DNA from: Patescibacteria group bacterium
GTDB taxonomy: Bacteria; Patescibacteriota; Dojkabacteria; GCA-002793355
Length of the DNA: 64,000 nt
NCBI GenBank assembly: GCA_016860985.1
Contig: BOKM01000001.1
Span: 719,462-783,461 of the forward strand
Reading direction: 5' to 3'
The translations under genes were made by a program, and so were the position numbers. Shown piece by piece: positions 5,618 to 63,264 of the stretch. The notes beneath the pieces are model-generated. The model saw nothing but the letters and a program-made list of their open reading frames with translations, made no database searches and was not told the origin of the DNA. The first letter of the stretch is position 1, and the number at the start of each line of letters is the position of its first letter.

Positions 5618-5624
5618 AAAACTA

Positions 5625-30532: not shown

Positions 30533-32314
30533 CTAAAGATCAATTGCCTTAGTGGCAATCTTCTCTTTGATTCGACTAATAGCGTCTTCAAGCGCTAAAC
30601 CATTGAGGTTCTCTCCTGTTCGAAGTCGTACACTAACCGTATTATTGGCAACTTCTTGCTTTCCAAGAATAAGCATGTACGGAATTTTTTGCTGCTGAGA
30701 AACCAGAATTCGTTTACCAAGTGTATTGTTATCCTCGTCAATTGATAATCTTACGCCGGGGATTGCCTCTTTAATTGCAGTGGCAACTTGTGCTGCATAT
30801 GCCTTTTGGTCTTCTCCTATTGGGATAATTACCACCTGTTCTGGGTGTAGCCAGACGGGGAAGTTGCCTGCATAGTGTTCAATTAAGAAAGCCATGACAC
30901 GTTCAATCGCGCCAATTGAGGATCGGTGGATAACGATTGCTTCTTTTTCTTGTCCATCTTCTGCGATGTAGTTCAGCTTAAATCGCTTTGGCATAACAAA
31001 GTCGTATTGCACTGTAAATGCCGTGTCTTCTTTGCCCAGTACATTCTTCATCTGCACGTCAATTTTTGGTCCGTAGAAAGCAGCTTCGTGTTCAGCTTCG
31101 TAGTACTCTGCGTGTCGTTCGTCTAACACTTCACGTAAGACGTTTTCAGCAAAATCCCATGCTGTGTCATCTTTGAAGTATTTCTTTTCGTCTGCACGAT
31201 CACCGAGTGAGAGCCTAAATCGGAAATTCTTTCCAGGTTCAAGCCCGAATGTCTTTGCGATGTCTTCGATTAGGTCAAGTACTTCAGAAATCATCTGCTT
31301 CGCTTGGTCAGGTTTGGCCACGATGTGTGCGTCTGCAAGACAAAAAGTTCTCACACGCATCAACCCAGAAAGTTCGCCCGATTTTTCGTAGCGATACAAC
31401 TGTGCAAGCTCAGCAATTCTCATTGGAAGTTCTCTGTAGCTTCGCTGTTTGCTCAAATACAACTCAAAATGATGTGGGCACGTCATGGGGCGAAGCATAA
31501 AGCGTTCTCCTTCATCTTCGATTGGTGCATACATACTTTCCTTGTAGTAAGGGTAATGCCCCGACTTCTCATACAACTGAATGCGAGCAATATCTGGAGT
31601 ATTAACATGAAGATAACCCCTTCTTATCTCTTCATCTACGATGTATCGTTCCAATTCACGTCGAACTGTTGCTCCACGTGGCGTCCAGAGTGGGAGACCT
31701 TTTCCAACGACTTCTGAGAATACAAAAAGGTCCAAATCTTTGCCGAGTTTTCGGTGATCTCTCATTTTTGCCTCCTCTAATCGCTTCAGGTAATCATCAA
31801 GTTCCTCTTGAGATTTAAACGAAACACCGTAAATACGTGTAAGCATTTCATTCTTTTCGTCGGCTCTCCAGTACGCACCGCCAATTGAAAGAAGTTTAAA
31901 GGCTTTTATTTCGCCCGTACTTTCGACATGTGGTCCTTTGCATAAGTCGACGTACTCGTCGCCAGTCCAATAAACTGTTACTTCTTTATCTGCTTGCGCA
32001 ATTTCTTCGAGCCATTCAAGTTTAAAGGGGTTATCTTTGAACAGTTCTTTAGCTTTTTCGTAAGTCACTACCTCTTTGCGGATTGGAAGATTTCGCTCAA
32101 TAATTTTCTTCATCTCTTTTTCAATTTTTTCGAGATCTTCAATAACTGGGGCCGTGTCCCAATGTGCATCGTTTGCGAAGCCATCTTCATCGATATGTGC
32201 GACGGCAAGCTTAATTTTGCCTGGGTAAAGTTTGGTTATGGCGTGGGCAAGTACGTGTTCACTGGAGTGCCAGAGTTTGTAGTGATACGAGTCTTCGAAT
32301 TTTTCTTGTTTCAT
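30533..32314 (-). CDS. thrS: threonine--tRNA ligase (lacks the N-terminal TGS domain)
   Basis: RDHRKLGKDLDLF, class II motifs (MTCPHH Zn-site region, YRYEKSGELSGLMRVRTFCLADAHI) and the anticodon-binding domain FPVWLHPEQVVIIPI. Confidence 0.9.
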   Translation of the reverse strand: MKQEKFEDSYHYKLWHSSEHVLAHAITKLYPGKIKLAVAHIDEDGFANDAHWDTAPVIEDLEKIEKEMKKIIERNLPIRKEVVTYEKAKELFKDNPFKLEWLEEIAQADKEVTVYWTGDEYVDLCKGPHVESTGEIKAFKLLSIGGAYWRADEKNEMLTRIYGVSFKSQEELDDYLKRLEEAKMRDHRKLGKDLDLFVFSEVVGKGLPLWTPRGATVRRELERYIVDEEIRRGYLHVNTPDIARIQLYEKSGHYPYYKESMYAPIEDEGERFMLRPMTCPHHFELYLSKQRSYRELPMRIAELAQLYRYEKSGELSGLMRVRTFCLADAHIVAKPDQAKQMISEVLDLIEDIAKTFGLEPGKNFRFRLSLGDRADEKKYFKDDTAWDFAENVLREVLDERHAEYYEAEHEAAFYGPKIDVQMKNVLGKEDTAFTVQYDFVMPKRFKLNYIAEDGQEKEAIVIHRSSIGAIERVMAFLIEHYAGNFPVWLHPEQVVIIPIGEDQKAYAAQVATAIKEAIPGVRLSIDEDNNTLGKRILVSQQQKIPYMLILGKQEVANNTVSVRLRTGENLNGLALEDAISRIKEKIATKAIDL

Positions 32315-49763: not shown

Positions 49764-50753
49764 ATGGTTAAAGAACAACGCCGAATAACGAAAGGAGCGG
49801 AGCGAGTAGCCACAGTTTCAGACTCACTAGATTTATTACGAAGCAAAGATTCTCCTCTAACGAAGATAAGTGATCAACTTTCACAAATTCGGGCTAATTT
49901 TCAGGTTTTGCTATCTCCTGGGGATAAGCAATTTAAAGATTTGCCCAAGCGCGTAAGGCTTATGATTGTGTCGTTTCTCGTCCCTGCGTTGTTTGCAGCA
50001 AGTAAATTACTGCTCTTTACCTCTACAACGTCACCCCTTATCTGGAGCTTAATCGCCTTGGCGCTTGCAATTTTAACGTATGGAGGGATGTATTGGGGGG
50101 TAAAAGGTCAAATTCGTCGTGATTCTCTAACGTCTGTTTTGCCTTTGCCATCGCTTTTTGTCTTTGCAAATGTTCTCTTTTTAAGCACTGTTTTTGTGGG
50201 CGAAGTTAATAGGCTCTATTTATGGGGGCTTTTCTCTCTTGCGCTGATTACCTTTATGATTTTATTATATGTGCTTTCACTCGCTGTAAATATATTAAAT
50301 GTTACATTGTTTTACACCATACCACTCAGCAGACTAGGCGAGTCAGTTGCCTACTTATCTAGCCTTATTACGCTGTTTTTGTTCACCTATGCTGCAGGCG
50401 CAACCGCAGTTTCTCTGTTTGCAACCTCGTTTTGGCTCTGGTTATTACTTCTTGGTGTTATTGCGTTTTTATTCATCTTTATACTCACATATTCGTTGTG
50501 GCGTTATTTCATCGCAAGCGCCCAAGCGGTCGGACCTTTTTCGCTAGGGATTTCTGTGCTTTTGTTCGTTGTTTGGGGCTTTTTCGTCTTCGGATTGCCC
50601 CATATTTGGCTTAGTGCTGTTATGACTGGGCTTTCTGCCTACATTGTGTACGGATTTGTTATTCACAAAGAACAAAACACATTAAAAAGCGTGGTTAATA
50701 TCGAATATATGGTACTTTTGCTGCTTGCGTTTTTCGTCATCCTAGGTGCATAG
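49764..50753 (+). CDS. hypothetical polytopic membrane protein
   Basis: About 8 TM helices, directly after ruvB. Confidence 0.4.
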   Translation: MVKEQRRITKGAERVATVSDSLDLLRSKDSPLTKISDQLSQIRANFQVLLSPGDKQFKDLPKRVRLMIVSFLVPALFAASKLLLFTSTTSPLIWSLIALALAILTYGGMYWGVKGQIRRDSLTSVLPLPSLFVFANVLFLSTVFVGEVNRLYLWGLFSLALITFMILLYVLSLAVNILNVTLFYTIPLSRLGESVAYLSSLITLFLFTYAAGATAVSLFATSFWLWLLLLGVIAFLFIFILTYSLWRYFIASAQAVGPFSLGISVLLFVVWGFFVFGLPHIWLSAVMTGLSAYIVYGFVIHKEQNTLKSVVNIEYMVLLLLAFFVILGA

Positions 50754-51251
50754 GGTAGAGGGGTGTGGATAAGTATAGACCTATAGTGTACATATCCCAT
50801 AGTAATCAGTCTGGCTATTTGTATCTTTTATACAAATATATGGAGGAGTGGCTATTCCTTCGATGTTCTTTCAGAAATATAAGGAAATTCCAAAAGAAAA
50901 GAGTGATAATTTTTCATATTCTACTCTAAATGTTGTGCCTTACTTCATATCGGTGCATGCAGTGCTAAAGTGCCAAAATTGTAAGCGCTTTTAGATTGAG
51001 TATAATCTCCCTTATACGCAGTCGAAACCTGTCAAGGTGGGAGTAGTGCCCTATTTACGGTTGTTACAAACAAAAAACTTATTTCAAAATATTTTCGCAG
51101 TAATTCTCTATTATGTTTATTAAATTTGTAATTTTTTCTGAATTTCGACGGAAAGTCGCCTTTTCTTCGGTTCTCCCTCTCGCGGCCGGCTGTTTATCTT
51201 TTGACTCCCCTGCCTCACACTTTGGCTGAATCTGCGCTATACTGTGAAGGA

Positions 51252-52382
51252 ATGAGAAAAATATCCATACAACAGCTGATGGAAGGCGATAAAACGCCCA
51301 AACTTGAGCGACAAAACGAGTACCTGTTATCTCTTTATAACGACGATTACAGCGACGAAACCGTTTATAATTACAATAGGGATCTATCTTTCTTTGCAGA
51401 ATATCTTTTACTTTCTAATACATCTTTTGAAAATATCTCAAAGTTAACGATTACGTATTACAAAGGATGGCTTAAGGAGAGAAATCATATTCACCAGAAG
51501 GTTCACGAACAAGAAATGGCAAAACAAGATGGTGATGGTAAGAAAAAGCCCCAGAATACCGTTGAAACGCGTAAAAACGCCTCAAAATCAAACGATGTAG
51601 CTTCAGTTGATCAAAAGGACGTTAAAAAACTGCAAAAAGGAGGCTTTGTGAAGAATAACAACCCAGAACAGCTTGATGCACTTTCTATTAATAGAATTCT
51701 AGTTGCTCTTAGAAATTATCTTCGATTTTTAGTCGAGTATGATTATCCAGCTCCAATTGCACCCGACGCAGTCACCTTGGTTCGACTTGCAAAAAAGAAA
51801 CCTCAGGTTCCAAGCCTAGATGAAGTAGTCGCTTTGGTAGAAGCTCCAACACATTACGAGGCTGTTTCTATCATTGCCCTGAGAAACAGAGCAGCGCTTG
51901 AACTTTTACTTGCTACGGGTATGCGTATATCAGAAGTAGTGAGTATAAACAGAGATCAAATAAACGGCGAGGGAAAACTTTTGGTTAGGGGTAAAGGGCG
52001 CAAAGATAGGTTTGTGTATCTAACGCCACGAGCAGTGGGGCACGTTCAGGAATACCTGAAAAATAGAGTAGACTCCTACCCTGCTCTTTTTTTACCAACG
52101 AGTGGAAGGCGCTTAAAGGGCAATGATCCCCGAATTTCAACCAATTATCTGCAAATGAAAATCGCCTATTATCGACGGATGCTTGAGATCGTTGTTCCAA
52201 TTAGCGCGCATACAATTCGTCATGCATACGCAACGTATTTGGTCGAAAATGGCGCCAATCCTGCAGCAATTCAGATCTTGCTTGGGCACGAAAGCCTTCA
52301 AACAACGACAAAGTATGTACATGCAAGCGATAAATATGCAGAGGAAACACACAAAGAGTTTCATCCAGCAATGGATGAGTAG
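51252..52382 (+). CDS. tyrosine site-specific recombinase, XerC/XerD-like, with lysine-rich insertion in the N-terminal domain
   Basis: GMRISEVVSINRDQI...VRGKGRKDRFVYL...HTIRHAYATYLVENGANPAAIQILLGHESLQTTTKYVH gives the R..HxxR..Y catalytic signature. Start MRKISIQQ at 51252 follows GAAGGA. Confidence 0.8.
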   Translation: MRKISIQQLMEGDKTPKLERQNEYLLSLYNDDYSDETVYNYNRDLSFFAEYLLLSNTSFENISKLTITYYKGWLKERNHIHQKVHEQEMAKQDGDGKKKPQNTVETRKNASKSNDVASVDQKDVKKLQKGGFVKNNNPEQLDALSINRILVALRNYLRFLVEYDYPAPIAPDAVTLVRLAKKKPQVPSLDEVVALVEAPTHYEAVSIIALRNRAALELLLATGMRISEVVSINRDQINGEGKLLVRGKGRKDRFVYLTPRAVGHVQEYLKNRVDSYPALFLPTSGRRLKGNDPRISTNYLQMKIAYYRRMLEIVVPISAHTIRHAYATYLVENGANPAAIQILLGHESLQTTTKYVHASDKYAEETHKEFHPAMDE

Positions 52383-52430
52383 ACTCTATATGATGTTACT
52401 GTAATATCGCCGGCCAGCAAACTGTTGTTG

Positions 52431-53435
52431 TTAGTTGCGACTTACGGGCGTAGGAACGTATTCTCCTAAATACCCAAGGGTTATCTTTATCTTTTCTGCG
52501 TTCTTAATTCTTTCGACATAACCGAATGTCGTATTGCTTTCGTATTCGTTTCTGTGAGGTGTAATGTAGGGGGTAATACCTTTTTCAAGGTAAAGCTCAG
52601 TTAAACTATACTTTGGTTCCTCCGATGGAACTGTCCGATCTGGAATGGGAGTAAACGTTCCTTTAAAGTTCAATTGTTCGGGCACAAAAACAATGAGTTC
52701 TTGAAACCCTGTTGACCACAATGAAGTATCGACATCTTCTGGTGCGTCGTATTCAGCTGGGAAACTTGGTTCTTCCTGTTCGGAATATATCTCAACAACC
52801 ATTTTGCCATATGGATTGCTTGTTTTCTCAGTAGTCGTTTTGAGTTTGTAATTTGGACTGCCTGTAAATTGAATAAATACTTCTTCGTCTTTTAAATCTC
52901 GCCCGTGGTACACATAGACCGTTCTCATGTTTTTGGCTGGAAAAATAACTTCGAGTTCTTGGGCTTTATTGCCTTTTGTAACTGTCCATTTGGAGCGGAG
53001 TTCTTCTTGTGCTACGTTTGAATATCTACCTTCTGGTGTGGTTACGGTAAGATAGAGGTTTCGTGCAGCAACTGAAATTCCACTAAGTAAAGCAATAACT
53101 ACTGCACCTTGGAGAAGTTTTACCCCGAGTTGACGGTAACCAACGGTAGCTCCAAGAAGTGGGAGTTCGATTAGCTTTGGCACATTAAAATCTTTGACCA
53201 GATCTTGTACCTTTCCTAACGTTTCGAGAATAGTTTTTGCCTCTGCAAAATTGATTGTACTTGAGGCCGATTTTTCAGTTTTCTCCGTGATATGTGCGAG
53301 AATTTCTTCTCGTAAACCAGTGTAAGTCGCCTCTGGAAGATACACTTTGAAAAGGTCAAAATCTTCTAGGTATTTAGAGAATAGACGCGCAGCATCTTTC
53401 TCGATTTTGGGGCTTTGGAAAATGTTTTTTTCCAT
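52431..53435 (-). CDS. DUF1700-like N-terminal domain / DUF4097-like beta-rich C-terminal domain membrane protein (PadR operon partner)
   Basis: N-terminus LPEATYTGLREEILAHITEK...ILETLGKVQDLVKDF has a DUF1700-like pattern, followed by a TM helix and a beta-rich C-terminus. Begins 3 nt after the padR stop. Confidence 0.45.
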   Translation of the reverse strand: MEKNIFQSPKIEKDAARLFSKYLEDFDLFKVYLPEATYTGLREEILAHITEKTEKSASSTINFAEAKTILETLGKVQDLVKDFNVPKLIELPLLGATVGYRQLGVKLLQGAVVIALLSGISVAARNLYLTVTTPEGRYSNVAQEELRSKWTVTKGNKAQELEVIFPAKNMRTVYVYHGRDLKDEEVFIQFTGSPNYKLKTTTEKTSNPYGKMVVEIYSEQEEPSFPAEYDAPEDVDTSLWSTGFQELIVFVPEQLNFKGTFTPIPDRTVPSEEPKYSLTELYLEKGITPYITPHRNEYESNTTFGYVERIKNAEKIKITLGYLGEYVPTPVSRN

Positions 53436-53437
53436 TT

Positions 53438-53767
53438 TTATGTATATTTATGTGAGATTATTGTATTTACAATGGCAACGTATTCTTTCCATTGTTTTAT
53501 GCTTTCTGTAAGCATTTGTGTTCCCTTTTCTGTAATTTCATAGTATTTTCGTGGCCTTCCCTGTTCTGATTCTTCCCACGTTGCAACCAAGTAGCCATCA
53601 GTTCGCAGCCGGATTAGGATTGGATATAACGTACCCTCTGTGATAATCATTCCGAGTACTTTGAGTTGCTCGACAAGATCATAACCATATTTACGCTCCT
53701 TTTGAACAAGGGCCAAGATGCAGAGCTCTAGTGTCCCCTTTTTTAATTGTGTATCTAATTCGGCCAT
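53438..53767 (-). CDS. PadR family transcriptional regulator
   Basis: KGTLELCILALVQKERKYGYDLVEQL...EGTLYPILIRLRTDGYLVATWEE...PRKYYEITEKG is a canonical PadR wHTH. Confidence 0.85.
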   Translation of the reverse strand: MAELDTQLKKGTLELCILALVQKERKYGYDLVEQLKVLGMIITEGTLYPILIRLRTDGYLVATWEESEQGRPRKYYEITEKGTQMLTESIKQWKEYVAIVNTIISHKYT

Positions 53768-53793
53768 ACCTTATATTTTGTATTACAAGGTAT

Positions 53794-53822
53794 ATTGTAC
53801 TGCACTATCCTCTCGATGTCAA
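53794..53822 (-). promoter_or_regulatory. sigma70 consensus promoter TTGACA -17- TACAAT driving the padR operon
   Basis: On the minus strand, TTGACA (53817-53822) and TACAAT (53794-53799) are 17 nt apart, about 27 nt upstream of the padR ATG. Confidence 0.55.
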
Positions 53823-53953
53823 ATCAATTGACGATAATGCACAAAATAGTAAGGTTATTTATCTGTTTATAAAGATTCATGATTCAAGAGAGTACCGAGA
53901 AACAAACTGAATACTCTACTCTCTCGAACTGCGTGCCGATAACGATGCTCCAA

Positions 53954-55003
53954 TTAGAAAAGGTCATTGAAGAGGTAGTCCCCTTTTTGGCAGATTTGTG
54001 TTTTAAACAATGGAATGCTGACCATTTCGGGCTCACTCTCTCGTATTGAGGTAACTACCGATTCCCAAGTCGATTCTGCATTAAAAACTACAGGAATTTG
54101 ATATTTTGATTGAAGTTCTGCAAGTTGTTCGTCCGTTTGTGCGACCATAATTCTAACTGAATCCGAACCTTTCATTATTTCTGAATTGTAGTTCGTCGCT
54201 GTCATTATGACCTGAATGGGAGTTAACCATAAGGGCAGTCTACCGTTTGCCTCAATAATGCTAGCAATAATTCGTTCTGCCCCACCGAGGGTAAAGTCTA
54301 CAAGTATGCTCGCTTTGTTGCCAATCTCAACGTTAAATAATTCTAGCGCAGAAAGTTCAATTATTTTTCCGTTCGGAAGGGAAATGTTGAAGTCGAGTGC
54401 AAGCACAGCCTCCTCTTCAGAAGACAAGTTAATTTCGAATTTCTCTCCCCAGGCTTTTTCTAACTCTTCCCACGAAATAAGGGAATTGTCTTTTACATGA
54501 CATTTAACTGAGAACTTAACATTCCAATCGTTTTCGAAGCTACGGATACACTTCATCAACCCAATTACGTCGCTAAGCGCCTGATCTTTGTTTATTGTGA
54601 AAGAGTGAACATCAGTAACCTGAAATGCCGTCTGGCGTGTAAACGGTGTAAGTCTTGATTTTTCTTCTCCTCTAAACAGTATTCCTTGTTCTACAAATGT
54701 AAGTGGGAATTGTTCATTCGGTATGTCTTTGTCTTTGAGCGTCTTAAAGTAATAATGGTGAAATGTGTGTCTCATTGAACCCTCTGGGGATATTGAAATT
54801 GCTTCTTTCGAATGAGTAAGGTTGTCTTGGATTAAGGGGCTGTCTACGTAAATGGGATTATTAAAGTATTTGAATACTGCGCCAATACAGTATCTCTTTA
54901 TCAAATCAACGGTTGTTTTACCAAAAGGAGTAAATTTTAATGAAAGAAAATCGTCGACCGCATAGGGCTCTGCAAGAGTATTAAGAATATTTAGACTATT
55001 CAT
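53954..55003 (-). CDS. truncated threonyl-tRNA synthetase paralog (class II catalytic core plus partial anticodon-binding domain; zinc-site Cys lost)
   Basis: It aligns by eye with this window's own ThrS. PLTFVEQGILFRGEEKSRLTPFTRQTAFQVTDVHSFTINKDQA corresponds to [42 protein letters not shown] (motif 2). LPLWLTPIQVIMTA corresponds to FPVWLHPEQVVIIPI. The ThrS MTCPHH zinc-ligand segment reads MRHTFHH here. There is no N-terminal editing or TGS region, and the protein is 349 aa. Confidence 0.6.
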   Translation of the reverse strand: MNSLNILNTLAEPYAVDDFLSLKFTPFGKTTVDLIKRYCIGAVFKYFNNPIYVDSPLIQDNLTHSKEAISISPEGSMRHTFHHYYFKTLKDKDIPNEQFPLTFVEQGILFRGEEKSRLTPFTRQTAFQVTDVHSFTINKDQALSDVIGLMKCIRSFENDWNVKFSVKCHVKDNSLISWEELEKAWGEKFEINLSSEEEAVLALDFNISLPNGKIIELSALELFNVEIGNKASILVDFTLGGAERIIASIIEANGRLPLWLTPIQVIMTATNYNSEIMKGSDSVRIMVAQTDEQLAELQSKYQIPVVFNAESTWESVVTSIRESEPEMVSIPLFKTQICQKGDYLFNDLF

Positions 55004-56181
55004 TGTTTTATAATTTCTTTAATTAAATTTACACAAGACTCAATTTGTTCCTTGGTATTGTAATAATGTGGAGAAATTCTTAGGATGCTTTCATCACCTA
55101 TCTCCCGCGCAGCTAAAACAATCCTGTAATTATGTAATTTTGCAACGATCTCTGAAGGTTTTTTCCCTTCGATTTTGAAAGAGACGATTGATGTTCTCTT
55201 CGCAAGATCATTGACTCCTAATATTGATACTCCCGGTATATCGTTAAGTAGTTGAATTGTTAACGCAATTAATTCTTTGTTCTTCTTTGCAACTTCGCTA
55301 ATACCAACTCGATTCAACAATTCAATCGCCTTGAGTAGGCCCACAACTCCCGTATAATTTCTAAAACCGTTTTCAAATTTATATGGTCCAGGCTTTACAG
55401 TATAATCATCATTTGAAAAATTTAGCTTAACTTGAACCCCATCTGATATTGCCTCTAAAATTCTAACATCCATACCGTAGTAATTAATTAGTTTTTGTGT
55501 TTCTTTGCTAATATACAGAATCCCAATGCCTGGAGGAGCACAGAGCCATTTGTATCCAGAAAAAACCATATAATCGCAGCCAAGAGCTTTCACGTTAACA
55601 GGCAAGCAACCAACTGTTTGTGCAGCGTCGACGAGCACGGTGTAGCTATATTTTTTTGCAAGAAGTGCTATGGATTCTACGTCGAGGACTGTTCCAAGGT
55701 TGTAAAGTGCGTGCGCAATCGCAACTATACCCCCTGGTTTTTCTTTCATGAGCAGCTCAATCTTTTGAAGGTCTGGGTTGCCAAATTCGTCAGAGCCGGT
55801 GATTTGTAAATCAAGATTTTTCTCTTTTGCAATTTTTAGCCAAGGCAAGAAGTTAGCCACATGTTCCTTTGATGATTCTCTCAGGATAATTCTGTCATTT
55901 TCTTTCCAAGAATAACCTTCAGCGATGATATTGATTCCATGTGTAATACTTTGGGTAAAAATGACTTCCTCAGGGGAACACCCAATTAGTCCTGCAACTG
56001 CATTACGCGTTTCTTCAAAATACGCTTCCTTTTTTACAAAAGGTGAGTCGGGACCATTATGTGAGTATTCTTGCAAGTAAGCATGAGTATCATTTAATAT
56101 GCTTTCAGGAACCGGCCCGAATGCTGCGTTATTTAAATAGTTCGTCGTATTATTTATCGCAAAATCATCTGCTTCTATCAT
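55000..56181 (-). CDS. class V (fold type I) PLP-dependent aminotransferase/desulfurase-family enzyme lacking the desulfurase catalytic Cys
   Basis: The PLP-lysine region is FSGYKWLCAPPGIG. The C-terminal region is SufS/IscS-like (...ISPHYYNTKEQIESCVNLI), but the active-site loop reads AAREIGDES with no Cys. ATGA overlap with the downstream ThrRS-like gene. Confidence 0.65.
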   Translation of the reverse strand: MIEADDFAINNTTNYLNNAAFGPVPESILNDTHAYLQEYSHNGPDSPFVKKEAYFEETRNAVAGLIGCSPEEVIFTQSITHGINIIAEGYSWKENDRIILRESSKEHVANFLPWLKIAKEKNLDLQITGSDEFGNPDLQKIELLMKEKPGGIVAIAHALYNLGTVLDVESIALLAKKYSYTVLVDAAQTVGCLPVNVKALGCDYMVFSGYKWLCAPPGIGILYISKETQKLINYYGMDVRILEAISDGVQVKLNFSNDDYTVKPGPYKFENGFRNYTGVVGLLKAIELLNRVGISEVAKKNKELIALTIQLLNDIPGVSILGVNDLAKRTSIVSFKIEGKKPSEIVAKLHNYRIVLAAREIGDESILRISPHYYNTKEQIESCVNLIKEIIKQ

Positions 56182-56251
56182 TAACTAGTAAAAAAAGTTA
56201 GTATATTGCCTCGATTTCCGGTATTCTCTTCTCTTTTCATTTTGCTGTCAA

Positions 56252-56278
56252 GCCTAAGTAGTACGTTACTGCTTAGGC
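56252..56278. promoter_or_regulatory. 27-bp imperfect palindrome (candidate operator) in the divergent intergenic region
   Basis: GCCTAAGTAGTAC g TTACTGCTTAGGC: the two 13-nt arms match at 11 of 13 positions. It overlaps the predicted -35 region of the kinase promoter. Confidence 0.5.
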
Positions 56279-56293
56279 AATGCCGAATTAGAA

Positions 56294-56302
56294 TGTTATA
56301 AT
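56294..56302 (+). promoter_or_regulatory. extended -10 element TGtTATAAT for the kinase gene
   Basis: TGTTATAAT lies 26 nt upstream of the ATG at 56329. Confidence 0.4.
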
Positions 56303-56328
56303 ACGCGCATAATTCTACTCATACGTAC

Positions 56329-57246
56329 ATGACTACATTGGAGCCAGAAACAATTGAAAAAAATGAACTCGCAATAAAAAGGATTCAAGAAATTGTTGGT
56401 GCTGATTATGCTGTTAAGCCCCTGGATGGCGGCTTTTCTGGAGCCGGTAAGTTTACAGCAGAGAGCCCTAGTGGTTCGGAAAAGTTGTTCGTCAAATATA
56501 GTGAAGTAGATAACAGCCTGGCTCCACCGAGAAAATATGTTGATTGGCTAAATCAAGAAATTGATGTTATGGCGTCGATGGGTGAACAACCTTTCGTACC
56601 AAGTGTAATAAAGGCTTACAAGGGTGACGAATATAGCGTACTCGCAATTAATCAACTGGAGTGGCCCAATAAACAAATAACATGGACGATGGAAAATGTT
56701 CAAAAGGTTTTGAAGGTAGTTCGGCAACTAAAAGATGTCCGCACCTCAGACAAACCAGCAATACCTCCTCCAGATGCTGGTGAGCAAAATCCCTGGAAAG
56801 ATGTATTTGAACAAATTAAGTCATCGGATCCTTCCCCATATGCTTCAAGAGCTTGGTTAGAGCAAATTAGAACTCGAGTTTTGGCTCTTGACCCAACCGA
56901 GCTTCTTACTCCAAAAGATTTTGTTCACGGTGATTTAAGGAGCGATAATATTCGTCTTGGAGACGGGTTGCCTACCGTACTTGTTGACTGGACTTTTGCT
57001 GGAATGGGGAACCATGATTTAGATATCGCGTATTGGTTGCCCAGTGTGAAAATGGAGGGTGGACCAGAACCGTGGGAAATCATGCCAAATAGACCTGACC
57101 TTGCCATGATGGTTGTAGGTTACTTCTTTGCACGAGCGATGTTACCGGAAATACCTGATGCTCCAATGGTACGAACGATTCAAAGAAAACAACTAATAGC
57201 GGCACTCCCTTGGCTCGCTCACGAGTTGAATGTTCCGCTGCAATAA
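56329..57246 (+). CDS. APH-like phosphotransferase (aminoglycoside / homoserine-kinase-II / AmgK fold) kinase
   Basis: Catalytic loop VHGDLRSDNIRL, and VDWTFAGMGNHDLDIAYWL, corresponding to the DWE..G.G....D motif. Confidence 0.75.
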   Translation: MTTLEPETIEKNELAIKRIQEIVGADYAVKPLDGGFSGAGKFTAESPSGSEKLFVKYSEVDNSLAPPRKYVDWLNQEIDVMASMGEQPFVPSVIKAYKGDEYSVLAINQLEWPNKQITWTMENVQKVLKVVRQLKDVRTSDKPAIPPPDAGEQNPWKDVFEQIKSSDPSPYASRAWLEQIRTRVLALDPTELLTPKDFVHGDLRSDNIRLGDGLPTVLVDWTFAGMGNHDLDIAYWLPSVKMEGGPEPWEIMPNRPDLAMMVVGYFFARAMLPEIPDAPMVRTIQRKQLIAALPWLAHELNVPLQ

Positions 57247-57248
57247 CC

Positions 57249-58244
57249 CTAGTGTGTAAGAATTGTTATTTTCGCAGAATTTTCAATCGCTTTTACTTCG
57301 CACGTGCCTCCGATTGGAATTGTTGCATTCGGGGTTGTATGCCCAAAATCAACATTTGCTACAATCGGAATGTTACTCAGCTCTGGGTGAGATAGGAAAA
57401 TCTGCTCAAGCAATTTAGGTGTTATTCCTGAAATATTATGGAATCGACCAATTACAATTGCCTTGATTTCTGATGAGTAGGATCTATTCATAAACGATTC
57501 AAAAAGTCCTGCGAATGACTGCGCATGTATATCACTAGTCGCTTCGAGAAAAAGAATCGCATTGTGTAATGGTCTTTCGTACTCAGTTCCGGCGTTTAAT
57601 ACATAAGTAGAAGTATTTCCACCATATATCGTTCCGGTTGCTTTCCCCTCACGAATAACCCAATACCCCTCATTTCTGATATAAGAACGATTCTCCTGGT
57701 CTTTGAACCAAGTGTCGTCACTCCATTCTTCCGAGGGGAGTAACTCATATGGAAGTTTCTCGCTGCAACATTTAATAAAATATTCTAGAGAGTAATTAAA
57801 CCCATATTTCATTCCCCAGCTTGTGAAGTGTGGTCCTAAATAGGTAATTAGTCCGGTCTTTGCGTAGATACCGTTAAGGATTGAAGTAATATCAGAATAG
57901 CCACAAATGACCTTTGGATTTGCCGCAATCAAATCGTAATCTAAATATTTTAATAGTTGATTTGAAGTATAGCCTCCCAAAACGGTAAGTATGCCATCAA
58001 CGGTTGAGTCCGAAAAAGCAGCATGTATGTCATCTACGCGAGATTTTATTGAGGAGGAGTCAAAAGAATCCCTTTCATATACATGCTCCCCAAAAGATAT
58101 TGTAAAGCCAGTATCTTCGAGTCGTTGCTGTGCCAATGGAATGATATCTTGCTTGATAAATGCGAGCGAGCGTGCAGGGGCAATGATTCTCAAGTGGGCA
58201 AGCGGATTCAATCGCTTAGCAATCAAAATTTTTCCCAAAAACAA
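57249..58244 (-). CDS. S66 family peptidase (LD-carboxypeptidase LdcA / microcin C immunity MccF-like)
   Basis: LRIIAPARS...TVLGGYTSNQLL...VICGYSDITSI (Ser nucleophile in GYSD)...VDFGHTTPN (His). Confidence 0.8.
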   Translation of the reverse strand: MFLGKILIAKRLNPLAHLRIIAPARSLAFIKQDIIPLAQQRLEDTGFTISFGEHVYERDSFDSSSIKSRVDDIHAAFSDSTVDGILTVLGGYTSNQLLKYLDYDLIAANPKVICGYSDITSILNGIYAKTGLITYLGPHFTSWGMKYGFNYSLEYFIKCCSEKLPYELLPSEEWSDDTWFKDQENRSYIRNEGYWVIREGKATGTIYGGNTSTYVLNAGTEYERPLHNAILFLEATSDIHAQSFAGLFESFMNRSYSSEIKAIVIGRFHNISGITPKLLEQIFLSHPELSNIPIVANVDFGHTTPNATIPIGGTCEVKAIENSAKITILTH

Positions 58245-58318
58245 ATAATCTCAGTACAAGAAATCATGCACTATTATACTATGCCTTATTGTCGCTACTC
58301 AAGAAGCATTTAATATCA

Positions 58319-58327
58319 TGCTATAAT
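58319..58327 (+). promoter_or_regulatory. extended -10 element TGcTATAAT for the AlaRS-like/methyltransferase gene
   Basis: TGCTATAAT lies 27 nt upstream of the ATG at 58354. Confidence 0.4.
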
Positions 58328-58353
58328 TACGTTCAAAGTTAGGCAACAACTAC

Positions 58354-60276
58354 ATGCAAACAAAAGAAATAAATAGCTATGGGTTTCAAAATTTTGATAT
58401 TGATGCACCAAACGTAGCTAGTGAATCAAGACACTATGTAACCGAATTGCTTGACAAGTTTAGAAACTATTTCACAAAACTCGGTTACTTTGACCAGCCA
58501 CCTGCTCCAATAAGTTCGGGGATCGATCCTACCGTGCGTCTTATTGGCTCTGGTATTTCGACATTAAAAAGATTTATACCTCCCTTTGGGAATGATAGCC
58601 TTCCTTATCCAGGTGCATTTATTCTTCAACGTGCCGTCAGGACTCGAAATCGTTCAATACTTATGGACGATGAGAAAGTACCAAACTGGGGGTCATTGTT
58701 CACTAATATTGTTTGGATTACTTCTCCAAAACGGTTAAAAGAAGCAACTGAAGAAACATTTCATTTCTTTCTTGATGAATTAGGGATTAAAAAAGAAAAT
58801 TTGATGATTCGAGTCAAGAGTAGCGACTACCAGAATCTATGGATGTATGCGGAAAAGTTTGTAGAGAATATCGAAATCGATTCAAAACCGGATAAATATT
58901 ACACTCATCAACTCGGCACGGATATTCTTTATGCAAATAGTTATAATCTAGCGTTGAAGGACCCTGACCCAAGTTCAAAAAATTTCCAAGATATCGGCAA
59001 TATTATTTTACACAGAGACAAGAATGGCAAAGAGGTGCTAGTAGAAATCGGTTTTGGGGATAGTACAATTTTGCGAGCAATGCGAGGAGGGCATGTTATT
59101 GACTGGCGCTTTGTTCCGGGTTTGATGACAGTTGATCCGAACATACGTTTGAAGATGGCAGATGAATTAATAACTTCTGTTGAATTAGCACGTGAAGGCC
59201 TAGTACCCTCTTCAAAGGATAATAGGACAAAGCTATTTAAAGCATACTTGCACGCGCTTCTTCGTCACCAAGCGATTACTGGGATTTCAATGGCGAAACT
59301 TGAGGATATCATAAACGAATATGAGCGTCTTGAGTTCCCTAATAGCGTGCTAAATGCAGGAAGTCTTGTTACAGGTTATTTGAACATGTTAATGAAGAAG
59401 GTTCAGATGAAAAAATTGAGTGAACTCTCTCCAGATGAACTAAAATTGAAGGAAATTTTTGATAGATATCCTGTTCTTGGAAATTATCAAATAGAAGTAA
59501 AACAAGCACATATGAAACTTTCGGGTGAAAAAACAACCGAGGCACTAATACCTGTAATTGAGAGATTTAATACGTCAATAATCGTTGAAAAATATAAAGA
59601 TGCTATTGAGAATGTAGGAATATGGGAATCTGAAAGTATCGTTGCAAACGCCTATTTAAACAAAGATGATAGGATTCTAGAGCTTGGATGCGGTACAGGG
59701 AGATTCACGTTTGGTCTATACAAACTTGGGTTCCATCATATTACGGGGATAGATTTAGCAAAGGAGTTGATTATGGTCGCGAAAGATTATGCAAAAAAGC
59801 ATAACCTCCGCGTCGCATTTTCTTACCAAGACGCTCGTAAGCTTCAGTTCCCTAATGAATCATTTGACGGTATCGTTTTTCCCTTTAATGGCCTAATGAC
59901 CATTCCACTTGAAGAAAACAGAAAGCAGGTACTTTCCGAAATAGCGCGAGTGCTTAGACCTTCTGGTTATTTCATATTTACTACTCACGACAGATTAATC
60001 AATAAAAATTATTCAGAATTTTGGAAAAAGCAAAGAAGCAACTTCCGGAGTGGAAAACGGGAACTGGGGCAATACGAATATGGTGATTTACCATTAAAAG
60101 GTGCGGAAGATGACGCTTTTATTCATATCCCTAGTATGAGCGAGGTCCGAAGTTTATTGAAATCGTATGGCTTCAAAATTGTCTATACTCGAATGCGAAG
60201 CAAAATTGCGACCGAATCAGAAAATACTATGAAATTCTCCGCGGACTGCCGTTTTTGGGTTGTACAGAAATTGTAA
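58354..60276 (+). CDS. fusion protein: N-terminal alanyl-tRNA-synthetase-catalytic-core-like domain + C-terminal class I SAM-dependent methyltransferase
   Basis: The N-terminus (LLDKFRNYFTKLGYFDQPPAPISSGIDPTVRLIGSGISTLKRFI...ILQRAVRTRN...EETFHFFLDELGIKKENLMIRVKSSD) parallels E. coli AlaRS (FLDFFHSKGHQVV...DPTLLFTNAGMNQFKDVF...SQRCVRAGG...AIQFAWELLT...ERLWVTVYESD). The C-terminus has MTase motif I ILELGCGTGRFTFGL, motif II-III (FDGIVFPFNGLMTI) and LRPSGYFIFT. Confidence 0.5.
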   Translation: MQTKEINSYGFQNFDIDAPNVASESRHYVTELLDKFRNYFTKLGYFDQPPAPISSGIDPTVRLIGSGISTLKRFIPPFGNDSLPYPGAFILQRAVRTRNRSILMDDEKVPNWGSLFTNIVWITSPKRLKEATEETFHFFLDELGIKKENLMIRVKSSDYQNLWMYAEKFVENIEIDSKPDKYYTHQLGTDILYANSYNLALKDPDPSSKNFQDIGNIILHRDKNGKEVLVEIGFGDSTILRAMRGGHVIDWRFVPGLMTVDPNIRLKMADELITSVELAREGLVPSSKDNRTKLFKAYLHALLRHQAITGISMAKLEDIINEYERLEFPNSVLNAGSLVTGYLNMLMKKVQMKKLSELSPDELKLKEIFDRYPVLGNYQIEVKQAHMKLSGEKTTEALIPVIERFNTSIIVEKYKDAIENVGIWESESIVANAYLNKDDRILELGCGTGRFTFGLYKLGFHHITGIDLAKELIMVAKDYAKKHNLRVAFSYQDARKLQFPNESFDGIVFPFNGLMTIPLEENRKQVLSEIARVLRPSGYFIFTTHDRLINKNYSEFWKKQRSNFRSGKRELGQYEYGDLPLKGAEDDAFIHIPSMSEVRSLLKSYGFKIVYTRMRSKIATESENTMKFSADCRFWVVQKL

Positions 60277-60339
60277 TCATTCTTCAAGATTCATACTTGC
60301 TAGAAATTTCTGACTAGTATTTATAAATTGTTAGTTATG

Positions 60340-63264
60340 CTAACTCGCCAACCCCGTCACTTCGTCTCCTTCTGCAATTCGGAATACTTTTACTCCATAG
60401 GTTTGTCTGTTTGCAAGTACCGGAATGCTTTGGAAGTTGGTTTTGATTACTTGCCCCTGTTTGGAGATAAGTATTACCTCTTTGTCTTCGGTTCTTTCGG
60501 CATCAGGGAATATTCGGGCTACCCGCAGGTTACCTGTTTTGCCTCCAATCTTTGCAGCAAAGATGCCTGTGCCACCTCTGTGTTGTTGCTTAAACTCAGA
60601 CAATGCGGTGCATTTACCAAAACCTTGTGCAGACACAGTAAGGAGTAAGTCGGTCTCGCTAGAGACAACGTCGAAGGAGATAACTTCGTCATCTTTCTTC
60701 ATGCTAATGCCTTTTACGCCCATTGTGTTTCGGCCACTTTCTTTCACTTCTTTTTCGGCAAAGCGGATAGATTTTCCTTTTTGTGTGACAAGAATAAGCT
60801 CGTCTTTTGCTGTAGTAAGTTGGGCCTGTACCAATCGGTCCCCTTCTTTAAGAATTATGGATACGAGACCGTTCTTTCGGATGTTCTCATATTCATCGAG
60901 TGCGGTTTTCTTTACGATTCCGTTGGCAGTTGCCATTGCAATATATTTGCCATCAGCTCGGCTTTGTAACGAGAGCAATGAGCTGACCACTGTATTTGGA
61001 GTGATTTGCAATAAGTTCACAATTGGAAGACCCTTTGCAATTTTCTTTGCTTCTGGAATCTCATAGCCACGTAGTTTAAAGACTTTACCATCGGACATAA
61101 ATACAAGGAGCCAGTCGTGAGTATTACACAATAACGCATGGTTAACGTAATCATTTTCTTTGAGTTTTGCACCGATGCTTCCTTTTCCGCCTCTGTGCTG
61201 TAAGCGGTATTCTTCTGGAGATACTCGCTTGATATAGCCGGACTTGCTGATGGTTACAAAGGTTTGTTCGTTTGCTACCAAATCTTCTTCTTGTGGTTCG
61301 TCGACGTCACCTTTGTAGACTTTTGTACGTCGCTTATCTGCGTATTTCTCTTTGACTTCGAGTAGGTCGGTTTTTACTAACTCAAGAATTTTAATCTCTT
61401 CTGCGAGGTAAGACTCGTGATGTTTGATATTCTCAAGAAGACCGTTGTATTCATCTTGAATCTTTTGTCGTTCGAGTGCTGCCAACTTTCTAAGTTGCAT
61501 ATCGAGAATCGCTTGTGCCTGAACATCGGTTAGGTCAAAGCGTTCCATAAGCCCAATTTTTGCTTCGTCTGCATTCTTGGCTGCACGAATGAGTTTGATT
61601 ACTTCTTCAATAAAGTCGAGCGCTTTGAGTAAACCTTCTAAAATGTGAGCGTCGTATTTGTTTCTTGCGAGTTCGAATTCCAGTTTACGGATAATAACGG
61701 TCATTCGATGATCAAGATACAATTCCAAGATTCGCTTGAGGTTGAGTGTACGAGGCTGATCATCAACCAACGCAATCATGTTTGAGTTAAAGTTCATTTG
61801 CAGTGGCGTGTATTTGAACAGCTTCTGCATAATGATCTGTGGTGAGAAGCCAGACTTTACTTCGATGTAAATACGAATTTCGTTCTTCGAGGATTCGTCG
61901 CGGAGATCTTTTACGCCTTCAATCTTTCCGTCGTGGATTAGCTGTGCAATTTGCTCCATAAGTACAGCTTTGTTTACTTGGAATGGAATCTCAGTAATAA
62001 TAATTGCTTGTTTTCCACTGTTTGTTTCTTCGACAGTCATGACTCCGCGCATCTTTACCCGACCATTGCCGGTTTCGTACATGCTCAGGATATCTTTCTG
62101 GTTATAAATAACGCCACCGGTTGGGAAGTCAGGACCTTTAACGAATTGCATTAACTCTTGCGTGGTAACCTGCGAAATGAACTTTGGGTACAACGAAAGT
62201 ATCGGTGCTCCGTCAAATCCCTCTGCAAGTTTGGCTAAACTCTCTGTGTTTAACCCTAATTCGGCTGCGTTTTCAACTAATGTTCCTTCTTTGATAAAGA
62301 GTTCGAGCGCTGCGACTTTTTCTTTGAACAATGGGTCATTTGGCGCAATGTAATTGTCCCAGTACGTAAATGGCTCTGAGCTTAACAATTGAGGTACTCG
62401 TGTGTTTTGTTCTCTAAAGCTTCGAAGTAAATTGTATGCAGATTTTCCACCCCAGGTATTCCCTTGGTCGATCATGGAGATAAGCGCATCGATAAGTTCT
62501 CCGAGGTTATGTGGTGGAATTTTTGTCGCCATACCTACGGCAATACCACTCGTTCCGTTTGCAAGTAGGTTTGGAAACGCTGCAGGTAAAGCTACAGGTT
62601 CGTTTCGGGTTCCGTCGTAGTTGACACGGTATAGTACAGTTCCTTTGTCGATATCTTTTATTAATTCAACAGCTATTTTTGAATATTTTGCTTCGGTATA
62701 ACGCATGCTTGCTGCAACATCTCCGTCGATTGAACCGAAGTTCCCTTGGCCATGAACCAACGGATATCGCATGGTAAAAGGCTGTACCATGTTTACGAGA
62801 GTTTGATAGATTGCTTGGTCACCGTGTGGATGATAGTTACCCATTGCTTCACCAACGATTTTTGCGGATTTACGGGTTGCTCCAGTTGGCCAAAGGGTTA
62901 AATCTTTCATTGCAACGGTTACACGTCGCTGCGAGGGTTTAACGCCGTCTTTTACATCTGGAATGGCTCGATCAACAATTACGCTCATGGCGTAGTCGAT
63001 AAAGTCTTTCTTTAATTCGTCGGTGATTGATACAGATACTGTTTCTCCCGCTTTGAAGCCTGCACCGGTCGTGAGCATGTCACTAATGCCTTCGTTTGAT
63101 TCTTCGCCAATTTCAAGGTCACCAGTGGCAGTTTTATAGTCGTCTGACTCGAGCGAGTCTTGAGGTGCACTTTCTAAAGAGGTCGGCTCAGCAGCAGATT
63201 CTTTTATCTGTTCATCAATGAGGTTCTTTACGTCTTCTGGAATTGGTGTTTTGTCTTTTGCCAT
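60340..63264 (-). CDS. gyrA: DNA gyrase subunit A with acidic N-terminal extension
   Basis: DYAMSVIVDRAIPDVKDGVKPSQRRV, active-site AASMRYTEAK, and C-terminal beta-pinwheel repeats. A roughly 70-aa acidic low-complexity N-terminus precedes the conserved start. Confidence 0.9.
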   Translation of the reverse strand: MAKDKTPIPEDVKNLIDEQIKESAAEPTSLESAPQDSLESDDYKTATGDLEIGEESNEGISDMLTTGAGFKAGETVSVSITDELKKDFIDYAMSVIVDRAIPDVKDGVKPSQRRVTVAMKDLTLWPTGATRKSAKIVGEAMGNYHPHGDQAIYQTLVNMVQPFTMRYPLVHGQGNFGSIDGDVAASMRYTEAKYSKIAVELIKDIDKGTVLYRVNYDGTRNEPVALPAAFPNLLANGTSGIAVGMATKIPPHNLGELIDALISMIDQGNTWGGKSAYNLLRSFREQNTRVPQLLSSEPFTYWDNYIAPNDPLFKEKVAALELFIKEGTLVENAAELGLNTESLAKLAEGFDGAPILSLYPKFISQVTTQELMQFVKGPDFPTGGVIYNQKDILSMYETGNGRVKMRGVMTVEETNSGKQAIIITEIPFQVNKAVLMEQIAQLIHDGKIEGVKDLRDESSKNEIRIYIEVKSGFSPQIIMQKLFKYTPLQMNFNSNMIALVDDQPRTLNLKRILELYLDHRMTVIIRKLEFELARNKYDAHILEGLLKALDFIEEVIKLIRAAKNADEAKIGLMERFDLTDVQAQAILDMQLRKLAALERQKIQDEYNGLLENIKHHESYLAEEIKILELVKTDLLEVKEKYADKRRTKVYKGDVDEPQEEDLVANEQTFVTISKSGYIKRVSPEEYRLQHRGGKGSIGAKLKENDYVNHALLCNTHDWLLVFMSDGKVFKLRGYEIPEAKKIAKGLPIVNLLQITPNTVVSSLLSLQSRADGKYIAMATANGIVKKTALDEYENIRKNGLVSIILKEGDRLVQAQLTTAKDELILVTQKGKSIRFAEKEVKESGRNTMGVKGISMKKDDEVISFDVVSSETDLLLTVSAQGFGKCTALSEFKQQHRGGTGIFAAKIGGKTGNLRVARIFPDAERTEDKEVILISKQGQVIKTNFQSIPVLANRQTYGVKVFRIAEGDEVTGLAS

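Follow-up and report, generated by a model that had tools for sequence, protein, structure and literature searches.

The open reading frame (ORF) at positions 53954..55003, located in a 64,000-nucleotide (nt) stretch of contig BOKM01000001.1 from a Patescibacteria group bacterium (the whole stretch is referred to as the window), encodes a paralog of threonyl-tRNA synthetase (ThrRS). The protein retains the ThrRS fold and the conserved ATP-binding residues of a class II aminoacyl-tRNA synthetase (aaRS) and has lost the elements that ThrRS uses for transfer of the amino acid to tRNA and for editing. It is under purifying selection, and its gene is linked to that of a pyridoxal 5′-phosphate (PLP) enzyme. 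Our tentative interpretation, to which we give slightly less than an even chance, is that the paralog is an active, tRNA-independent amino-acid-adenylating ligase in a small-molecule pathway, possibly one leading to an aminoacyl-nucleoside.

The ORF is intact, begins with ATG and encodes 349 amino acids (aa). A sequence-only reading of the same DNA had described it as a ThrRS paralog that lacks the zinc-ligand cysteine, the N-terminal half and the editing domain, and had quoted three peptides, which we located at residues 77-83 (MRHTFHH), 110-135 (FRGEEKSRLTPFTRQTAFQVTDVHSF) and 256-269 (LPLWLTPIQVIMTA). Alignments confirmed this description. In BLASTP, residues 24-267 aligned with residues 210-496 of the thrS product of the window (22% identity, E 4e-9), and profile-profile alignment (hhalign) of eight family members with 16 ThrRS sequences gave a probability of 99.6% and an E value of 5.9e-24. 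The match to ThrRS is genuine and not spurious, and the homology is far above chance. A PDB sequence search returned ThrRS entries only, apart from one marginal unrelated match. On the other hand, the score of an equivalog was not reached with TIGR00418 (thrS; E 4e-13, 49 bits, cutoff 383.65) or with PRK03991 (33.4 bits, cutoff 484), and Pfam PF00587 (tRNA-synt_2b) matched with 25.9 bits, slightly below the gathering score. The window also carries a normal thrS with the TGS/editing half, SGH..Y, MTCPHH, FYGPK and the zinc histidines. The paralog fails most of the sequence tests that define ThrRS, so the earlier statement that it is not a genuine ThrRS holds. In the databases it is labelled hypothetical by NCBI and threonyl-tRNA synthetase by JGI; the latter is a mislabel, and counting the paralog as a second thrS would be wrong.

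The AlphaFold2 model of the paralog, built from a 26-sequence alignment, has a mean predicted local distance difference test score (pLDDT) of 92.1 and a predicted template modelling score (pTM) of 0.91, and supersedes an earlier model from four sequences only (pLDDT 58). The model shows the fold of aaRS subclass IIa, with the antiparallel sheet and motifs 1-3. ThrRS structures aligned with it over 318-322 residues and SerRS only in the core, over 228-245 residues, while HisZ was a much weaker structural match than ThrRS. The motif 2 form D[VI]HSF is common to the paralog family and archaeal-type sequences in the 26-sequence alignment, and profile scores are better to the archaeal-type sequences P0008, P0095 and P0096, which suggests that the paralog descends from an archaeal-type ThrRS core.

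The residues expected to contact ATP are retained. R111, E113, R123 and F127 of motif 2 and R244 of motif 3 correspond, as we take it from established structural work, to R363, E365, R375, F379 and R520 of E. coli ThrRS. Throughout the 26 sequences, from the paralog family to canonical ThrRS, R111, R123, H133, E243, R244 and P257 are invariant; E113, F127 and G240 are invariant among the eight family members. Both the motif 2 (fRxE...R...F) and the motif 3 (GxxER) signatures of class II ATP binding are thus present. Even family members with only about 19% identity keep this signature without exception, so that an adenylate-forming ligase is the simplest explanation; to this extent the earlier proposal, a protein that should bind ATP and an acyl or aminoacyl substrate, is supported. 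A regulator, which had been named as another example, is less likely given the invariant catalytic arginines.

In ThrRS, the active-site zinc chelates the α-amino and β-hydroxyl groups of threonine; its ligands in the E. coli enzyme are C334, H385 and H511. This Cys/His/His triad is not found in the paralog. C334 is opposite His82 in the MAFFT and BLAST alignments and opposite Thr80 in the hhalign alignment, where the register is shifted. H385 is kept as His133, and H511 is opposite Asp236 in both MAFFT and hhalign. None of the eight family members, the most distant at about 19% identity, departs from His82, His133 or Asp236, which argues for ligand substitution and against decay of the site. 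The metal site therefore looks remodelled as His82/His133/Asp236 rather than lost. Of the earlier claim that the zinc-ligand cysteine has gone, the absence of the cysteine stands, but the site itself appears to be rebuilt as His/His/Asp and not simply missing. Further changes in the pocket are Q381 to V129, Q479 to E216 and Q484 to E221, with E216 and E221 invariant. A different variation of the site was seen in the archaeal-type ThrRS-like sequences P0008, P0095 and P0096, which carry LRFAGDFG in place of RPMxCP and an Asp opposite the zinc Cys. P0096 has an archaeal editing domain, and the three may be forms resembling ThrRS-ed or a real ligand variant.

Elements for handling tRNA are deleted or reduced. 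An 8-residue deletion takes out SGHxxxY, which contains the equivalent of E. coli H309, and the FYGPK loop (Y462, K465) is deleted as well; both are missing from every family member in the 26-sequence alignment. In ThrRS, H309 is needed for transfer of the amino acid to A76 of the tRNA. The TGS, N1/N2 and editing domains are absent. The LPxWLxPxQ linker into the C-terminal domain is common to the paralog and ThrRS, and the C-terminal ~90 residues behind it form a β-α-β-α-β-α arrangement in the model, of which ~70 residues superpose on the ThrRS anticodon-binding domain. The secondary structure of the model lacks the long helix α-1 and the β4-β5 hairpin. The remnant is acidic, with an isoelectric point of 4.3 (residues 262-349) versus 6.9 for the domain of thrS, and Pfam PF03129 (HGTP_anticodon) gave no match in the paralog. 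The earlier reading had the start of the anticodon-binding domain retained; the homology is correct, and what is retained is more than the start, namely a compact remnant of ~70 residues. The distant family member P0007 carries a full-length anticodon domain, which appears as an insertion in the alignment.

The paralog family is truly rare. In an exhaustive profile search of 1.84 billion cluster representatives, four proteins were found with E <1e-30 and seven with E <1e-10, one of which is a repetitive artefact; all other matches were ordinary ThrRS with E >1e-8. A word-indexed protein search yielded only three relatives, scans of genome contigs and of metagenome contigs one locus each, and a tblastn search of plasmids ordinary thrS genes only. 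The identical protein is present on nine contigs, the longest of 1,051,512 bp. In the searchable literature we found neither an account of the family nor one of any ThrRS-derived ligase that stands alone and has its metal site rebuilt, and searches on ThrRS-like paralogs, on aaRS-like proteins together with MccF and on aaRS paralogs of Patescibacteria gave nothing on it. Orthologs from five lineages are 347-350 aa long with 50-58% identity; the distant members P0007 and P0009 are 19-29% identical. Across eight sequences, 29 columns are invariant and concentrated at the active site. The proportion of nonsynonymous differences (pN) is 0.28-0.36, compared to a saturated synonymous value (pS) of 0.71-0.88, which indicates purifying selection. 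Half of ThrRS and several catalytic motifs are gone, as might be expected of a decaying duplicate or a pseudogenised thrS fragment. However, the intact ORF, the conserved length and identity, and a pN well below the saturated pS exclude a pseudogene, which the sequence-only reading had considered as a possible refutation, and the invariant columns and the confident model also speak against it; we regard the chance of decay as negligible.

The gene for the PLP enzyme lies directly upstream of the paralog gene, and the ATG of the paralog overlaps the stop codon (TGA) of the PLP gene (...CAATGAAT...). The enzyme matches Pfam Aminotran_5 with E 5.5e-67, and every SufS/Csd desulfurase model scored below its cutoff. 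Alignment to 5b7s shows that it keeps the PLP lysine (SGYKW, K211) and the region of the substrate-carboxylate arginine, while a 9-residue deletion removes the GHHCA loop with the catalytic cysteine. The same deletion, at LAAREIG, is found in all four PLP orthologs. Of the two features that mark SufS/CsdA, the lysine is thus kept and the persulfide-forming cysteine of the GHHCA loop is not. Because this loop is deleted, the enzyme cannot be a persulfide-forming desulfurase. It belongs to a distinct, Cys-less SufS-like subfamily and is probably a lyase, a β-replacement enzyme or a transaminase. The order PLP gene followed by paralog gene is fixed and coupled in all four loci that carry the pair (window, L001, L003 and L007). 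The junction is a 4-nt overlap in the window, a 4-nt gap in L001 and a 14-nt overlap in both L003 and L007. Conservation of the coupling in four independent loci lends support to the earlier suggestion that the two proteins act together.

Table 1. Positions in the window of the paralog, its active-site elements and the genes compared or linked with it.
Feature	Position	Strand	Details
ThrRS-derived paralog	53954..55003	-	349 aa; class II catalytic core, ~residues 20-256, and reduced anticodon-binding-like domain, ~257-330
MRHTFHH	54755..54775	-	residues 77-83; aligned with LRPMTCPHH of ThrRS
His82	54758..54760	-	invariant in 8/8 family members; opposite the Zn-ligand Cys in MAFFT and BLAST (Thr80 in hhalign)
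Motif 2 and loop	54599..54676	-	residues 110-135; R111, E113, R123, F127 = ATP-binding residues
His133, counterpart of second Zn ligand (E. coli His385)	54605..54607	-	invariant
Strand before motif 3, and motif 3	54272..54298	-	residues 236-244; GGAER with motif 3 arginine R244
Asp236	54296..54298	-	opposite third Zn ligand (E. coli His511)
Reduced anticodon-binding-like domain	54014..54235	-	residues 257-330; three strands, two to three helices (model)
SufS-like fold-type I PLP enzyme	55000..56181	-	393 aa; upstream of paralog, translationally coupled
APH-family (protein-kinase-like fold) small-molecule kinase	56329..57246	+	305 aa; divergent from PLP gene; Pfam APH E 1.1e-10
S66 serine peptidase, MccF-like clade	57249..58244	-	331 aa; Pfam S66 and S66C; GYSD nucleophile motif
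AlaRS-like/methyltransferase fusion	58354..60276	+	640 aa; N-terminal ~400 AlaRS-like, truncated; ~430-640 class I S-adenosylmethionine methyltransferase
Housekeeping thrS	30533..32314	-	593 aa; comparator outside the cassette; protein cluster named threonine--tRNA ligase

The pair is part of a larger cassette that had not been recognised in the sequence-only reading and whose other members are an APH-like kinase, a methyltransferase with a fused or neighbouring AlaRS-like domain, and an MccF-like peptidase (Table 1). The kinase shows weak matches to APH(3') and GntI, and its orthologs in the cassettes of L001 and L006 are 54% and 35% identical. Among PDB entries, the S66 peptidase matched BA_5613 of B. 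anthracis ('MccF-like', E 1e-97) far better than MccF (4e-36) or LdcA (5e-19), and it is also close to Lmo1638 (E 3e-90), which like BA_5613 is an MccF-like protein of Firmicutes. This closeness to Firmicutes proteins may reflect horizontal transfer into the Patescibacterium. A functional study of the BA_5613/Lmo1638 subfamily was not found in the literature. The peptidase ortholog in L004/L005 is 49% identical, and its gene overlaps the AlaRS-like gene by 4 nt.

The methyltransferase part of the fusion matched Pfam with E 7.5e-22; its match to MccD is weak (E 8e-5) and non-specific. The AlaRS-like part comprises ~400 aa in the fusion and 352-378 aa when stand-alone, and only five homologs of it were found among 5.8 billion proteins. 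A profile of five homologs matched A. aeolicus AlaRS with E 2.2e-7 at positions 27-164 only. Pfam tRNA-synt_2c reached its gathering score on the homolog P0099 (E 2e-7), again over about the first 160 residues only, and the second half of the domain gave no match to PDB or with any other tool. E231 may stand in place of AlaRS D235, as in D232E of AcmF.

No carrier-protein gene was found in or beside the cassette in any locus, and the intergenic gaps in the window are <190 bp. There is no tRNA gene in or beside the cassette of the window, and Rfam showed no riboswitch, T-box or other RNA in 50500..60500. PADLOC returned generic DndA/SspA and methyltransferase matches only, and thus no known defence system. 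Two known pathways were tried as explanations of the gene set and rejected: methionine salvage, with the APH protein as MtnK and the gene of the nucleoside-phosphorylase (PNP) family found in locus L003 as MtnP, because there were no MtnK-specific matches; and a phosphocholine pathway (kinase, phosphoethanolamine-methyltransferase-like protein and PLP decarboxylase), because the methyltransferase matches are generic and the two synthetase-like proteins remain unexplained. About 1.5 kb from the cassette is a tyrosine recombinase gene (Phage_integrase, 51201..52382, plus strand) whose product begins with a long stretch rich in lysine. Between the two are genes for a PadR regulator (53438..53767) and for a protein of 334 aa without a family match. 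Flanking direct (att-like) repeats or a fragment of tRNA-Thr were not found around the cassette (50500..60500).

We compared the cassette in the window with the loci L001, L003, L004/L005 and L006/L007; L006 and L007 overlap, with identical methyltransferase and paralog segments. All five components (APH kinase, AlaRS-like part, methyltransferase, PLP enzyme and paralog) are present in three independent loci, namely the window, L001 and L006/L007. In L001, the fusion gene occurs together with those of the kinase, PLP enzyme and paralog. In L006/L007, kinase, AlaRS-like and methyltransferase genes follow each other as separate genes and are convergent with the PLP-paralog pair. Identity across the shared proteins of the three loci is 35-61%. 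Functional linkage is well supported, because the loci are independent and differ in gene order and fusion state. In both L004 and L006, two neighbouring genes encode the AlaRS-like part and the methyltransferase. Linkage of the S66 peptidase to the AlaRS-like gene is seen in the window as well as in L004/L005.

The remaining loci carry part of the set. In L003, only the PLP-paralog pair is present, preceded by a nucleoside-phosphorylase-like gene of the PNP/UDP family and surrounded by housekeeping genes for CysRS, archaeal-type ProRS and GlyRS. A 235-aa ORF directly after the paralog (9424..10131, plus strand) had no match in Pfam, NCBIfam or PDB, and an upstream 331-aa ORF (5035..6030, plus strand) had no family match, although its N-terminal DAHTH motif may indicate an amidohydrolase. 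L004 (3550..7541) and L005 carry a variant directly after a GlyRS gene, in the order methyltransferase, AlaRS-like protein, S66 peptidase and a 373-aa AsnRS-like core, with no ThrRS-like or PLP gene. The AsnRS-like core lacks the OB anticodon domain and is matched by AsnA-like models too. We read these arrangements as two modules that usually travel together, one of the PLP enzyme and the ThrRS-like protein and one of the AlaRS-like part and the methyltransferase, to which the kinase and the S66 peptidase may or may not be added. In L006, the cassette begins with the kinase gene, and 33 nt upstream of it is a tRNA-Thr(UGU) gene of ordinary appearance (633..705, plus strand); in the window, L001, L003 and L004, the surroundings of the cassette are free of tRNA genes. 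The tRNA gene could be an attachment site of an island, a coincidence or a hint of the involvement of tRNA(Thr). In L001 (316..1860, minus strand), ~5 kb from the cassette, an EF-P gene adjoins a gene for an EpmA/GenX-like protein (LysRS-derived EF-P lysine aminoacylase; 282 bits, just below the cutoff). This contig thus encodes another paralog that stems from a synthetase, which is probably unrelated to the cassette.

As an amino-acid-adenylating ligase, the paralog would be a neofunctionalised ThrRS catalytic domain that has kept ATP binding and, most likely, the formation of an acyl-adenylate. It would activate a different amino acid without charging tRNA(Thr), and the acceptor would not be tRNA. 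The rebuilt metal site may still chelate the α-amino group and the β-substituent of a small amino acid. Since the zinc site is rebuilt and the rest of the pocket remodelled, this would be a small α-amino acid with a metal-chelating β-substituent other than threonine. The pockets of ThrRS and AlaRS naturally accept serine, and enzymes of the SufS type act on β-substituted alanines, so the theme shared by the cassette proteins may be β-substituted alanines. The coupled PLP enzyme would probably make or consume the activated amino acid, and the kinase possibly creates a phosphate leaving group, by analogy with homoserine kinase and threonine synthase or with PSTK and SepSecS. The most plausible role of the cassette as a whole would be to assemble some modified aminoacyl compound, for instance an aminoacyl-nucleoside or an aminoacyl-adenylate-like antimetabolite, and to protect the cell from it. 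Known relatives of the MccF type hydrolyse aminoacyl-nucleotide antibiotics, so the presence of such a peptidase fits a product of this class. A more specific version, which we consider rather unlikely, is a Trojan-horse aaRS inhibitor (a mimic of an aminoacyl-adenylate or aminoacyl-nucleoside) made with two retired synthetase domains and accompanied by immunity. Here, the ThrRS-derived ligase would act together with an AcmF-like, AlaRS-derived aminoacyl-tRNA transferase fused to the methyltransferase, kinase and PLP enzyme would supply the β-substituted amino acid, and the MccF-like peptidase, perhaps with the kinase, would confer self-immunity.

Several observations weigh against the proposal of an adenylating ligase in such a pathway. 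The geometry of H82/H133/D236 is deduced from alignment, and hhalign favours Thr80 over His82. Adenylation could be impaired, since the deleted Y462/K465 loop contacts the adenylate in ThrRS. The AlaRS-like assignment is supported by sequence matches for only about the first 160 residues of that part, and nothing at the cassette could be recognised as an acceptor, a carrier protein or a transporter. The L003 contig (13 kb) has neither the kinase gene nor the AlaRS-like/methyltransferase genes, and L001 has no gene for the MccF-like S66 peptidase. The linkage statistics are thin, because there are only 4-5 loci and all of them are metagenomic. Finally, a biosynthetic cluster in a genome of ~1 Mb would be unusual.

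The same gene order that supports joint action would also suit a stoichiometric complex in which the paralog has no catalytic role and, as a regulatory or scaffold subunit, only senses a ligand (an amino acid or ATP) or holds the PLP enzyme. There are precedents in HisZ, the HisRS-like subunit of ATP phosphoribosyltransferase, and in SepCysE of the SepRS-SepCysS complex, and the deletion of several substrate- and tRNA-contacting motifs would be in line with such a role. However, pure scaffolds seldom keep catalytic residues of motifs 2 and 3, and in this family P0007 and P0009, at 19-29% identity, still have E113, F127 and the arginines of motifs 2 and 3. The putative metal triad is invariant too. 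The loss of the catalytic ATP-binding arginines that marks a HisZ-like protein is not seen (R111, R123 and R244 are invariant), and the structure is much closer to ThrRS than to HisZ. We therefore consider a non-catalytic partner unlikely. Less probable still is a tRNA-dependent amino acid conversion, in which the paralog would charge a tRNA with a precursor such as Ser, Thr or homoserine, the kinase would phosphorylate this precursor and the PLP enzyme would convert it while bound to the tRNA, following the logic of SepRS/SepCysS or SerRS/PSTK/SepSecS, with the AlaRS-like methyltransferase acting on the acceptor end. A synthetase-like protein that occurs with a kinase and a PLP enzyme of fold type I does mirror PSTK/SepSecS, a parallel drawn from established knowledge and not from computation. 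Two SepCysS models match the PLP enzyme weakly, at E 5e-15 and 2e-11 and each short of its cutoff, the AlaRS-like domain may bind the tRNA acceptor stem, and L006 has its tRNA-Thr(UGU) next to the cassette. Against charging of a tRNA stand the deletion of SGH..Y with the H309 equivalent, the acidic anticodon remnant without α-1 and the β4-β5 hairpin, and the lack of a tRNA gene near the cassette in the window, L001, L003 and L004, that of L006 being ordinary-looking. In addition, the PLP enzyme keeps the arginine region that binds the free α-carboxylate in SufS and lacks the cysteines that SepCysS uses.

The MccF-like, immunity-type peptidase and the APH-like kinase nearby are classic types of resistance enzyme, and the genome holds a second ThrRS homolog in addition to thrS. 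The paralog might accordingly serve in self-resistance, either by replacing a sensitive ThrRS, as BorO and ObaO do, or as a decoy that sequesters an aminoacyl-adenylate mimic. Known resistance synthetases are full and active enzymes close to the housekeeping enzyme, whereas the paralog is only 22% identical to thrS (49 bits versus the 384-bit cutoff of the thrS model). Without the zinc Cys, FYGPK, the H309 motif and a functional anticodon domain, it cannot take the place of ThrRS, and sequestration would leave the obligate coupling to the PLP gene unexplained. This makes a role in resistance improbable. Slightly lower again, and in our view very improbable, is a ligase that loads an amino acid onto a phosphopantetheinyl carrier, in the manner of the truncated SerRS-like amino acid:[carrier protein] ligases Bll0957 and Atu2573; an amino acid:carrier ligase was one of the functions named in the sequence-only reading. 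The evolutionary path would be the same, to a metal-dependent class II core with no functional tRNA-binding domain, but ThrRS and not SerRS is by far the closer relative, and no carrier-protein gene fits into the cassette. Among the functions considered, an amino-acid-adenylating ligase that does not use tRNA remains the one that we prefer.

If the paralog is active, it would show how the zinc site by which ThrRS discriminates threonine can be retuned to a different amino acid that chelates the metal, with His/His/Asp in place of Cys/His/His. Its constant partner, the SufS-like enzyme without the Cys, and the genes that recur with the pair (AcmF-like AlaRS remnant, kinase, methyltransferase and MccF-like peptidase) would make up a testable set with small, expressible parts. 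If the proposal is true, the cassette is a candidate offensive or defensive small-molecule pathway for Patescibacteria, whose ~1-Mb genomes are thought to be poor in secondary metabolism. In the Trojan-horse version, if true, the paralog would be the first ThrRS-derived biosynthetic ligase, and the cassette the first such antibiotic pathway in an ultra-small episymbiont.

Compared to E. coli ThrS (1EVK, 1QF6) and the thrS of the window, the paralog shares the R/E/R/F residues of motif 2, GxxER, the second zinc His and LPxWLxPxQ. The TGS/N2/editing domains, Cys/His/His, SGH..Y, FYGPK and the full anticodon domain of canonical ThrRS are absent, changed or reduced in it. Yeast mitochondrial MST1 (3UGQ) and Aeropyrum pernix ThrRS-1/ThrRS-cat (3A32) consist, like the paralog, of a catalytic and an anticodon domain without editing in cis. 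Yet MST1 and crenarchaeal ThrRS-1 are true ThrRS enzymes with a Cys/His/His zinc site and a complete anticodon domain that charge tRNA(Thr), and the paralog family lacks this zinc triad, with an anticodon domain that is reduced in the model of the paralog.

Repurposed synthetase paralogs have opened new biochemistry in several cases, including HisZ, AsnA, EpmA, GluQRS, the amino acid:carrier-protein ligases, AcmF and SbzA. Bll0957 and Atu2573 (3MEY) are truncated homologs of methanogen-type SerRS encoded beside a carrier-protein gene, whereas the paralog is derived from ThrRS and has no such gene. HisZ, the HisRS-like subunit, is not adenylating; the paralog family keeps an invariant class II ATP signature. 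Microcin C involves an MccF-clade S66 peptidase, a methyltransferase-fold protein and a PLP enzyme (MccD and the N-terminal domain of MccE), and the cassette holds the same broad classes, but the MccB-type adenylyltransferase, the precursor-peptide gene and the MccC exporter of microcin C have no counterpart in it. In the ascamycin pathway, AcmF is a truncated AlaRS-like protein in which most of the residues critical for binding ATP and activating alanine are missing; it takes Ala from Ala-tRNA and attaches it to a nucleoside sulfamate, which yields ascamycin (PMC12945691). AcmF and AcmD, and SbzA of SB-203208, are synthetase-derived enzymes that build aaRS inhibitors of the aminoacyl-nucleoside type (PMC12945691). 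By its description, AcmF is like the N-terminal domain of the fusion at 58354..60276 and its stand-alone homologs, both being truncated and AlaRS-like, and the nucleoside-phosphorylase-family gene ahead of the pair in L003 can be counted beside this precedent. AcmF uses Ala-tRNA and has lost most of its ATP site, whereas the ThrRS-like paralog keeps it. The sulfamate, the halogenase and the other acm/nuc genes of the ascamycin system are not found in the cassette, and the hosts differ, a Streptomyces versus a Patescibacterium. Without being a member of any one of these groups, the paralog resembles the repurposed synthetase paralogs represented by the amino acid:carrier-protein ligases, EpmA, AsnA, HisZ, AcmF and SbzA.

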